From Minisyncoccota bacterium (GTDB lineage Bacteria; Patescibacteriota; Minisyncoccia; Phycocordibacterales; UBA918): 64,000 nt of DNA. The stretch spans positions 36,846 through 100,845 of the forward strand of contig JALHRC010000002.1 in assembly GCA_022841645.1 (NCBI GenBank), given 5' to 3'. Within the stretch, counting starts at the first letter, position 1. Each line of letters opens with the position of its first letter. Shown here in pieces: positions 37,308-38,265 of the stretch. A program made the translations under genes and the position numbers. The notes beneath the pieces are model-generated. The model was not told the DNA's origin. It did no database searches and saw nothing but the letters and a program-made list of their open reading frames with translations.

Positions 37308-37353
37308 AGTAGCGAGTGCCTTGTTGGGCTTTCGCTACTCAGTGGTACTGAGT
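37308..37353 (+). repeat. 46-nt structured repeat, copy 1 (AGTAGCGAGTGCCTTGTTGGGCTTTCGCTACTCAGTGGTACTGAGT); two adjacent hairpins
   Basis: Hairpin 1 pairs AGTAGCGA with TCGCTACT (8 bp) around a variable loop. Hairpin 2 is ACTCAGT-GGT-ACTGAGT (7 bp). Located 3' of the first cassette ORF. Three near-identical copies are present. Confidence 0.7.
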
Positions 37354-37362
37354 AAATTACGC

Positions 37363-37695
37363 ATGGAAAAGCATTATCAGTTGCTGAGCACATTATTTCT
37401 ACTAGCACTATTTGTGGTGGCTTCGGAATGGTGGATTATTACATCACTCATATATTTTACTTGCCAAAGCGAAGCAGGGAACGCGTGCACCTTGCTTGAA
37501 ACGTACGCTCCAGTTCGCTATCTTGGCCTTGATTCTTGGTTGTACGTTGTCGCCGGTACGCTACCGATTGCTTGGTTGCTACTCTTGCTATCAAAAAAAC
37601 TTACCCGTATTGATACGCTAATTGGCCTCGTTTCTGTTCAAATACTCTTACTAATCACCGTTGCCCTTGTTGAGTTTGTTCAAAAAGCACTGTAG
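37363..37695 (+). CDS. Small hypothetical membrane protein (110 aa), second cassette-like ORF
   Basis: The ORF track start 37321 is a TTG inside the repeat element. The first ATG, at 37363 (MEKHYQLL...), is preferred. About 3 TM helices. Confidence 0.45.
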   Translation: MEKHYQLLSTLFLLALFVVASEWWIITSLIYFTCQSEAGNACTLLETYAPVRYLGLDSWLYVVAGTLPIAWLLLLLSKKLTRIDTLIGLVSVQILLLITVALVEFVQKAL

Positions 37696-37700
37696 CACCA

Positions 37701-37746
37701 AGTGGCGAGTGCCTTTATGGGCTTTCGCCACTCAGTGGTACTGAGT
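37701..37746 (+). repeat. 46-nt structured repeat, copy 2 (AGTGGCGAGTGCCTTTATGGGCTTTCGCCACTCAGTGGTACTGAGT)
   Basis: It differs from copy 1 by A4>G and a compensatory T29>C that keeps the base pair, plus loop changes. Located 3' of the second cassette ORF. Confidence 0.7.
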
Positions 37747-37779
37747 CACGTCAGACAAGACGTTAAAATCATCTAAGTC

Positions 37780-38214
37780 ATGGATAAGAAATCAACAAAA
37801 AAGTACGACTGGCTAACAAAGTTTCTTATAGATACCGATAGGTTAGATAATCCAAACCTTCCAGTAGCTAAGCAGGAGTACACACCAACACAAAAGTTTT
37901 TTGGGTGGGTACTACTTTTTGTTACTACACATTCATGGTGGATTTCTGCTGCATTTGTATTGTACTTTTGCGAAGGAGCAATAGGTGTTGGATATAGGTG
38001 CACCATTCCAATTGAAGATTGGGCTTTCTTTACCGAATTGTCTACTATCTTCTTTGGTATACCGCTATTATTACCACTATTATTTTACTTTAAATTCTTT
38101 AGTAATTTTTTTAAGAAAATTAATACCCTGACCTTCATTCTTGGCTCGATCTTATTGCTTGTAATTATTTTTAACCTGGTATCAATCTTGTCAAATTACT
38201 TGAACAACCAGTAG
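37780..38214 (+). CDS. Small hypothetical membrane protein (144 aa, about 4 TM), third cassette-like ORF
   Basis: Very AT-rich ORF with hydrophobic helices (FFGWVLLFVTTHSWWISAAFVLYF; IFFGIPLLLPLLFYF; FILGSILLLVIIFNLV). Confidence 0.5.
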   Translation: MDKKSTKKYDWLTKFLIDTDRLDNPNLPVAKQEYTPTQKFFGWVLLFVTTHSWWISAAFVLYFCEGAIGVGYRCTIPIEDWAFFTELSTIFFGIPLLLPLLFYFKFFSNFFKKINTLTFILGSILLLVIIFNLVSILSNYLNNQ

Positions 38215-38219
38215 TGATG

Positions 38220-38265
38220 GGTAGCGAGTGCCTTCCCGGGCTTTCGCTACTCAGTGGTACTGAGT
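38220..38265 (+). repeat. 46-nt structured repeat, copy 3 (GGTAGCGAGTGCCTTCCCGGGCTTTCGCTACTCAGTGGTACTGAGT)
   Basis: The stems are conserved and the loop (TTCCCG) differs. Located 3' of the third cassette ORF, 35 nt before atpD. Confidence 0.7.

Follow-up and report, generated by a model that had tools for sequence, protein, structure and literature searches.

Within a 64,000 nt stretch of a contig from a Minisyncoccota bacterium (JALHRC010000002.1, assembly GCA_022841645.1; this whole stretch is referred to here as the window), the F-type ATP synthase operon hosts three copies of a structured element, located between the atpG (gamma) and atpD (beta) genes. The element is very probably a functional RNA structure acting in cis and, on a narrow balance of probabilities, a translation-coupled intercistronic mRNA structure which punctuates the atp operon. 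Its homologs in related genomes vary in ways that preserve the predicted helices, and the full unit includes the stop codon of the preceding open reading frame (ORF), which is predicted to pair with a strand that can alternatively form a second hairpin.

The three ~46 nt repeats, at positions 37308–37353, 37701–37746 and 38220–38265 of the plus strand, were first noticed in an annotation made from the sequence alone (the first-pass annotation), and inspection of the sequence, a repeat finder and a pattern search all agree on them. Each starts exactly 5 nt past the stop codon of a small AT-rich ORF with transmembrane (TM) segments. The core pattern GCGAGTGCCTTnnnGGGCTTTCGCnACTCAGTGGTACTGAGT has three matches in the 64 kb, compared with none expected from 100 shuffled sequences, and was also reported as a family by the repeat finder. 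All three copies fold far better than their shuffled counterparts (z-scores of −3.6 to −4.3, with 0/200 shuffles equalling the native sequence). The differences between the copies are as first described: the A-to-G change at position 4 of copy 2 is compensated by a T-to-C change at position 29, copy 3 starts with a G that gives a G1:U32 pair, the loop of hairpin 1 varies (TTGTTG, TTTATG and TTCCCG), and hairpin 2 (ACTCAGT-GGT-ACTGAGT) is identical in all three. A lone compensatory change among three paralogs would by itself be weak evidence of structure, and it is the relatives that provide the strong evidence. A search of the whole window against Rfam 15 at the gathering threshold matched two tRNAs alone and assigned no family to the element, while relaxing the threshold to E ≤10 over positions 36950–38350 gave two chance matches of 10–16 bits, against cut-offs of 55–100 bits. 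No published description of the element was found in a literature search. We assign it to a known type, the structured intercistronic mRNA element (here with alternative pairings that are probably coupled to translation), as a motif that is new within this type and restricted to one lineage.

When 185,579 species, each represented by one genome, were scanned for the exact pattern, only one genome, a Patescibacteria metagenome-assembled genome (L001), was returned, with a single copy, and the corresponding scan of Joint Genome Institute (JGI) metagenomes returned one contig (L007). Further contigs were picked via graded AtpG homologs and then inspected at the atpG-atpD spacer, and in total a homologous element was present in this spacer in 10 related Patescibacteria/Paceibacteria contigs, as a single copy in each. 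The resulting 13 instances (the three window copies plus L001, L007, L008, L009, L011, L012, L013, L014, L016 and L018) were aligned (alignment A3), and a covariance model, R1, was built on this alignment and run with filters off. Over the window and the 10 loci, R1 recovered these copies only, with 72–80 bits in the window and 51–76 bits in the relatives, so that covarying homologs exist well beyond the window; the next plus-strand match in the window scored ~11 bits, and all other matches in the window and loci were ≤12 bits apart from minus-strand echoes. Since R1 finds the three copies alone in the 64 kb of this genome that were covered and one copy per related locus, and the exact pattern has one location in the entire L001 assembly, the element is not a dispersed repeat of the repetitive extragenic palindrome/bacterial interspersed mosaic element (REP/BIME), miniature inverted-repeat transposable element (MITE) or enterobacterial repetitive intergenic consensus (ERIC) kind. 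Eight matches to the 16-mer CTCAGTGGTACTGAGT in viral contigs lacked hairpin 1, scored 15–24 bits and were treated as due to chance. Judged by these sequence comparisons, the element is specific to the atpG-atpD spacer of one Paceibacteria/Parcubacteria subclade and ancestral there, and the family seems confined to relatives with an AtpG identity of ~68% or more; in L029 (AtpG identity 66%), the 160 nt spacer has no detectable homolog of the element. Copy 3 is the ortholog of the single copy of the relatives, and its 3′ flank can be aligned to the atpD leader in each of L001, L007 and L012. In the Parcubacteria genome CG2_30_44_11 (L016), the element is followed within the spacer by two further features, a long inverted repeat (CCCGTTAGAGTC ... 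GACTCTAACGGG, positions 3941–4040) and a 34 nt AT-rich palindrome (4072–4105).

The conservation of the element exceeds that of neutral sites in the same operon. Four-fold degenerate sites of atpG are 37–48% identical between the window and the relatives and thus saturated, and the synonymous substitution rate (dS) was at least 0.77 even in the closest pair tested, whereas the 46 nt core is 87–91% identical across the window copies, L001, L007, L008, L012 and L013 (the type-I group). As the element is conserved where synonymous sites are saturated, the window copies are under purifying selection, and recent duplication or mobility need not be invoked. In alignment A3, 86% of the cells of the 13 pairs of hairpin 1 are paired, compared with 30–46% when partners are slid, 7/13 pairs have changed on both sides, and none of 500 shuffles attains the observed covariation score. 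In L009 and L011, the sequence of hairpin 1 is unrelated to that in the other genomes and still folds, with the upstream strand, both arms of hairpin 2 and the flanks retained, which indicates that hairpin 1 acts through its shape. These two loci are nested within the clade of L007, L012 and L008, have an AtpG that is 96% identical to that of L007, and have lost the small ORF; comparison of L009 4908–4943 and L011 1034–1067 with L007 2398–2368 (minus strand) shows a complete swap of the hairpin 1 sequence accompanied by a precise loss of the small ORF. Hairpin 2 also covaries, with a compensatory A-U to G-C change in L008 and other bases altogether in L014 and L018 (UUGGUG/CACCAA). Finally, G:U pairs of the plus strand are conserved at columns 23–45 (11/13 instances) and 10–58 (9/13 instances), and as these would be A·C mismatches on the opposite strand, it is the transcribed strand, and hence the RNA, that is indicated as the structured molecule. 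The first-pass annotation had proposed selection on secondary structure rather than on primary sequence; covariation argues for the former half of this proposal, but the sequence is not free to vary, being conserved far beyond neutral sites.

The element is larger than the repeat by which it was recognised. RNAalifold extends hairpin 1 (H1) by a further helix, P0, which joins the upstream motif AAGUARURCUNAG, where the stop codon is located, to CAGUGGUACU, the segment that forms the 5′ arm and loop in hairpin 2. The figure of 46 nt hence stands for the repeats, but not for the whole unit, in which 11–13 nt upstream, including the stop codon, pair in P0. Three pairing regions are arranged around H1 as a clamp hairpin: a (~12 nt, with the stop codon), b (CUCAGUGGUACU) and c (ACUGAGU). 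The long hairpin consisting of P0 and H1 (~20 bp) is the minimum free energy (MFE) fold in 12/13 instances, at −17 to −37 kcal/mol, and P0 contributes 4–14 kcal/mol beyond hairpin 1 alone, whereas hairpin 2 alone is worth 3–8 kcal/mol. Masking of the stop codon together with the following 15 nt, to mimic a terminating ribosome, lets hairpin 2 form in 9/13 instances, among them the three window copies. The two hairpins do overlap by 3 nt (ACT), as noted in the first pass, although the chief competitor of hairpin 2 is helix P0 and not this overlap. Shuffles of the upstream 15 nt match the gain from P0 in 0–43% of trials (median ~6%), which is modest support for each instance, although its direction is consistent across differing upstream sequences, and P0 is kept in all three window copies despite their differing a strands. 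In L008, the bases A, U, A, U at columns 5, 13, 55 and 63 of alignment A3 are jointly replaced by G, C, G, C, preserving the P0 pairs 5–63 and 13–55 as well as the hairpin 2 pair 55–63. The apparent invariance of hairpin 2 is explained by b having two partners, one of which contains a stop codon. The upstream stop codon is predicted to lie inside P0 at the usual offset, with L008, L012 and L013 as exceptions, and the element adjoins the stop codon of whichever ORF precedes it, this being atpG in L009, L011 and L016 and a small ORF in the other loci. In most genomes, the end of hairpin 2 is ~31–36 nt from the atpD ATG, separated from it by a G-poor leader without a Shine-Dalgarno (SD) sequence. 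Pairing of a further region, d, with c, or of b with the atpD start, works in L009 only and was rejected as unconserved.

We propose that, in the absence of a ribosome, a would pair with b in P0, which stacks on H1 to give the single long hairpin as the default fold. A ribosome terminating at the stop codon would cover a and the 5′ arm of H1, upon which b would be freed to pair with c as hairpin 2. Such a structure may shield the 3′ end of the upstream mRNA segment and, after cleavage, the 5′ end of the downstream segment, and initiation on the adjacent unstructured, SD-less leader may be made dependent on translation of the upstream ORF, in the manner of coupling by RNA unfolding. The presence of three copies in the window follows from the spacer holding three small membrane-protein ORFs, each ending in one, and each unit of ORF and element has retained its own copy under purifying selection, with ORF2 and ORF3 being old paralogs. 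An intra-operon role in processing or stability, as suggested in the first-pass annotation, is still the best reading alongside a role in translation, with the output itself to be taken as a prediction from the fold; stability, processing and coupling are each, taken singly, a tentative assignment that falls somewhat short of an even chance.

Translational coupling by RNA unfolding is established, including in the atp operon of E. coli (reviewed in PMC12548453, citing Rex et al. 1994 and Hellmuth et al. 1991), and the structures involved (E. coli atpH-atpA, PMC12548453; phage MS2 coat-lysis; rpmI-rplT) are the closest known systems. The element shares with the atpH-atpA type its intercistronic location in an atp operon, a 5′ strand at the end of the upstream ORF, a predicted remodelling by a translating or terminating ribosome and mutually exclusive alternative pairings. 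It differs from these systems in lacking sequence homology to them, in leaving the atpD and ORF3 starts uncovered (34 nt away), in residing in an SD-less genome, and in being a self-contained a/H1/b/c module that is repeated past each small ORF.

Hairpins that stabilise intercistronic mRNA are also well known, as with the REP/BIME sequences of E. coli malE-malF and the hairpins of the Rhodobacter puf operon, which resemble the element in being stable stem-loops without a U-tract directly past a cistron within an operon. By this analogy, it is plausible that the element acts as a barrier to 3′ exonucleases, resulting in segmental mRNA stability. REP sequences are, however, present in hundreds of dispersed copies, compared with the one locus here, and the bistable design is not one of their features.

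Several observations weigh against a translation-coupled punctuation element. Its output, be it stability, processing or coupling, is deduced from a predicted structure, which itself ends 34 nt before the atpD and ORF3 starts and leaves these start codons unsequestered, so that classical unfolding coupling or start occlusion plausibly fits ORF2 alone, with its start at a distance of 10 nt. Most pairs of P0 are invariant, and the case for this helix is made by a few events (in L008 and in L014/L018) and by the modest shuffle test (0.000–0.43). The stop region of L018 folds on itself, and the stop codons of L008 and L012 are off the usual offset. In L013, three small ORFs are accompanied by one element, with a different motif ('m', Table 1) taking the other places, which shows that a small ORF need not be followed by such a hairpin. 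Lastly, the high conservation of the primary sequence could mark a bound protein.

This last point leads to the first of the rival explanations, in which the 7-3-7 palindrome ACTCAGT-GGT-ACTGAGT would be a DNA operator or the site of an RNA-binding protein, allowing feedback on ATP synthase. Hairpin 2 and its loop are indeed nearly invariant in 10/13 instances, even where H1 has been replaced, and the primary sequence is conserved well past the needs of pairing. This invariance is explained equally well by b pairing with both a and c, with a being constrained by the stop codon, and the arms in L014 and L018 are entirely different (TTGGTG/CACCAA in DNA), as is the loop in L016. There is no regulator gene nearby, and the palindrome lies inside the operon, distant from promoter-like sites; a promoter scan did not give a convincing σ70 site in or after the elements. 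We consider a protein-binding site unlikely, and hold a similarly low opinion of a terminator or attenuator that reduces transcription into the next cistron and thereby sets the ratios of gamma, small-ORF and beta products. A stable G+C-rich hairpin does lie directly past the stop codon, and the a:b and b:c pairings resemble the 1:2 and 2:3 pairings of leader-peptide attenuators, trp-type attenuators likewise making this choice according to the position of the ribosome at the end of a short ORF. The element differs from the latter in its intra-operon location, in upstream ORFs of 64–300 codons without a run of regulatory codons, and in having neither a 3:4 terminator nor a U-tract. None of the 13 instances has a U-tract downstream of H1 or H2, and the terminator scan of the window does not list the element, while a canonical terminator with a U-tract is present elsewhere in the window (Table 1). 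The G-poor leader lacks a partner for a 3:4 terminator, and nothing downstream pairs with c. The beta subunit of F1 is needed at 3:1 over gamma, and termination before beta would be counterproductive given this threefold need. The intrinsic attenuator that tunes beta versus gamma, proposed in the first-pass annotation, is accordingly improbable in view of the missing U-tracts, the use of canonical terminators by this genome, and the stoichiometry. A functionless leftover of tandem duplication is more improbable by far: the paralogy of ORF2 and ORF3 does show that units of ORF and element were duplicated, but these ORFs have diverged down to 25% amino acid identity while the elements remain 87–91% identical, the elements are equally conserved across genomes with saturated synonymous sites, and their covariation preserves the helices. 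Two other candidates were rejected, namely stimulation of stop-codon readthrough or frameshifting (the next in-frame stop is within 1–2 codons in most instances) and a minus-strand core of the hammerhead type (at odds with the sequence and without an Rfam match).

The layout of the window, in which ORF and element alternate three times, raised the possibility of a recombination site for small-gene cassettes with a logic like that of attC, in which crossover, site-specific or by short homology, would take place in a conserved 28 nt segment, S (GGGCTTTCGCTACTCAGTGGTACTGAGT), so as to insert, remove or rearrange the small membrane-protein genes of the spacer. Unrelated families of small ORFs do occupy the same site (those of the window and L001, L007 and L012, L008, L013a-c, and L014 and L018), and the small ORF is missing in L009 and L011 inside a clade that bears it. 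A further, indirect hint comes from assembly breakpoints: all five Logan contigs matching the window upstream at 100% identity, from five samples, end at 37355/37356 (S of copy 1 plus 2–3 nt), and the atpD contig begins where S of copy 3 begins, at 38238, for a total of 6/6 contigs (L002–L006 and L031) with breaks at the borders of S (window positions 37326–37356 and 38238), whereas the single-copy relatives L010, L013, L014 and L019 were assembled through the element unbroken. Because the 28 nt shared by copies 1 and 3 are shorter than the k-mer length of the Logan assembly, which we take to be 31, other junctions through S are suggested to exist in the population, but the breaks may also stem from strain variants or assembler behaviour. 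As in integrons, the promoterless small ORFs are each followed by an imperfect hairpin-forming repeat in a tandem array, and structure is kept above sequence in part of the element. The element nevertheless lacks the R″/L″/L′/R′ consensus of attC sites and the R/L boxes, an integrase or attI, occupies one locus, has strand-specific G:U pairs and occurs without a cassette (L009, L011 and L016). The motif GTTRRRY occurs in copy 1 alone, as GTTGGGC in the variable loop, is absent from copies 2 and 3 and from the relatives, and has no RYYYAAC partner. Pfam scans of 48 larger ORFs across the 64 kb did not detect an integrase (including the intI tyrosine recombinase domain), transposase or HUH enzyme, and the ORFs scanned are ordinary chromosomal genes. 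In the 185,579 species genomes and the JGI metagenomes, the element is restricted to its single locus and never lies beside a cassette elsewhere; the three-ORF array of L013 has a single element, and no element separates atpG from the first ORF. The recombination site suggested in the first-pass annotation thus finds no backing in recombinase genes or distribution, with the breakpoints as its one indirect hint, and we rate it as unlikely; the more specific version, in which the 28 nt core is the crossover of a cassette system in the ATP synthase operon of the candidate phyla radiation (CPR) that is integrase-free or uses an unknown recombinase, with the RNA fold as a second function, is slightly more doubtful still.

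The Pfam matches of the flanking genes bear out the setting in the atp operon, between the gamma and beta genes, that had been read from the sequence (Table 1). The atpG-atpD spacer is AT-rich, with a GC content of 0.35–0.44 compared with 0.53–0.59 for its flanks. ORF2 and ORF3 are distant paralogs (25.5% identity over 98 aa, E-value 9e-8, or 3e-4 with composition correction), and ORF1 is unrelated to either. An ortholog of ORF1 is present in L001 (43–44% amino acid identity), and this family has two members among 5.8 billion proteins, while a database homolog search with ORF3 returned the ORF3 protein alone; none of ORF1–ORF3 matches Pfam or NCBIfam. The spacer in this clade is a hotspot of small (64–144 aa) orphan ORFs with 2–3 TM segments that belong to several unrelated families. 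The small ORFs evolve fast, with nonsynonymous rates (dN) of 0.45–0.6 compared with 0.02–0.19 for atpG (3–9 times higher), and on sequence grounds they could represent lineage-specific accessory subunits of ATP synthase or de novo genes. Motif 'm' (GTCAGnnAAGACGTTAAAATCA) has a single occurrence in the window; L013 has it twice, each time past a small ORF (1760–1781 and 2082–2103). Motifs of the CATTACAAA type in the atpD leader of the window recur in relatives (L007, L008, L012, L013 and L014), and this leader resembles a CA-rich, unstructured enhancer of translation or a leader that binds S1. The SD motif is missing from nearly every gene start in the window, and several starts lie 10–20 nt past a −10 box resembling TATACT, a spacing suggestive of mRNAs that are leaderless or have very short leaders. 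Elsewhere in the operon, a MazG-like ORF is inserted between atpE and atpF, as it is in some relatives but not in L008 and L012, and an ORF resembling nucleoside 2-deoxyribosyltransferases separates atpD from atpC, with L029 having an extra 45 aa ORF at the same position.

Table 1. Positions of the element copies, their parts, the surrounding genes and the control terminator in the window, and the corresponding arrangement in the relatives (coordinates in each relative refer to its own contig)
Sequence	Feature	Position	Strand	Remarks
Window	atpB	32073-32852		
Window	atpE	33022-33285		
Window	MazG-like inserted ORF	33288-33614		108 aa; also in L009 (1212-1538); E 4.7e-4, weak, under Pfam cut-off
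Window	atpF	33617-34063		
Window	atpH	34091-34477		
Window	atpA	34509-36074		
Window	atpG (F1 gamma), upstream flank	36081-36983	+	Pfam PF00231, E 4.8e-80
Window	Small ORF1	36985-37302	+	105 aa; 2 TM-like segments; GC 0.36; starts 1 nt past atpG stop
Window	Element copy 1, full unit	37297-37356	+	R1 79.8 bits; long-hairpin MFE -28.2 kcal/mol
Window	Copy 1, P0 5′ strand	37297-37307	+	ORF1 stop TAA 37300-37302
Window	Copy 1, hairpin 1	37308-37339	+	
Window	Copy 1, hairpin 2	37337-37353	+	
Window	Small ORF2	37363-37695	+	110 aa; ~3 TM-like segments; ATG 10 nt past copy 1
Window	Element copy 2, full unit	37690-37749	+	R1 76.4 bits; ORF2 stop TAG 37693-37695
Window	Copy 2, hairpin 1	37701-37732	+	A>G / T>C compensatory pair
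Window	Copy 2, hairpin 2	37730-37746	+	
Window	Motif 'm'	37750-37771	+	GTCAGACAAGACGTTAAAATCA; mini-hairpin ACGTC-AGACAA-GACGT; between copy 2 and ORF3
Window	Small ORF3	37780-38214	+	144 aa; C-terminal half TM-rich; GC 0.34; ATG 34 nt past copy 2
Window	Element copy 3, full unit	38209-38268	+	R1 72.2 bits; ORF3 stop TAG 38212-38214
Window	Copy 3, hairpin 1	38220-38251	+	
Window	Copy 3, hairpin 2	38249-38265	+	
Window	atpD leader	38266-38299	+	CAGTAATAAATTATCAACCATTACAAACATTCCT; G-poor, C/A/T-rich, without SD site
Window	atpD (F1 beta), downstream flank	38300-39676	+	Pfam PF00006, PF02874, PF22919
Window	Nucleoside 2-deoxyribosyltransferase-like ORF	39685-40074		129 aa; 28.4 bits, just below 28.8 cut-off
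Window	atpC	40085-40333		
Window	Rho-independent terminator (control)	48587-48625		Past flavodoxin-like gene; GCAAAAGGAGCC ... GGCTCCTTTTGC then T-run
L001	One small TM ORF	6888-7208		One element after ORF
L007	One small TM ORF	2602-2402	-	One element after ORF
L008	One small ORF	4915-5214		99 aa; one element
L009, L011	No small ORF			One element each; hairpin 1 differs
L012	One small ORF	4909-5118		69 aa; one element
L013	Three small ORFs	1493-2451		One element; motif 'm' after first two ORFs
L014	One small ORF	2714-2908		64 aa; one element
L016 (Parcubacteria CG2_30_44_11)	No small ORF			One element
L018	One small ORF	3303-3503		66 aa; one element

Outside the operon, the window contains two giant ORFs, one at 378–6527 (2049 aa) without a Pfam domain and one on the minus strand at 51477–56531 (1684 aa) with CBM60 and peptidoglycan-binding domains, and both probably encode surface proteins of a kind that is typical for CPR bacteria. 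Two divergent tRNA-Ala genes are located 1.5 kb apart, at 27750–27823 (minus strand) and 29308–29381 (plus strand), with the anticodons TGC and GGC.

Gene regulation in Patescibacteria/CPR has barely been explored; these bacteria cannot be grown alone. The element adds an instance to a familiar class and does not amount to a new principle, and it marks a hotspot of fast-evolving orphan micro-membrane proteins inside the ATP synthase operon. The covariance model R1 can be used on all CPR genomes to define the family, which is well suited for inclusion in Rfam as a new entry. As a locus-specific, covarying and apparently bistable module, the element indicates how an organism without SD sequences may punctuate a polycistronic mRNA and balance the subunits of an essential complex.

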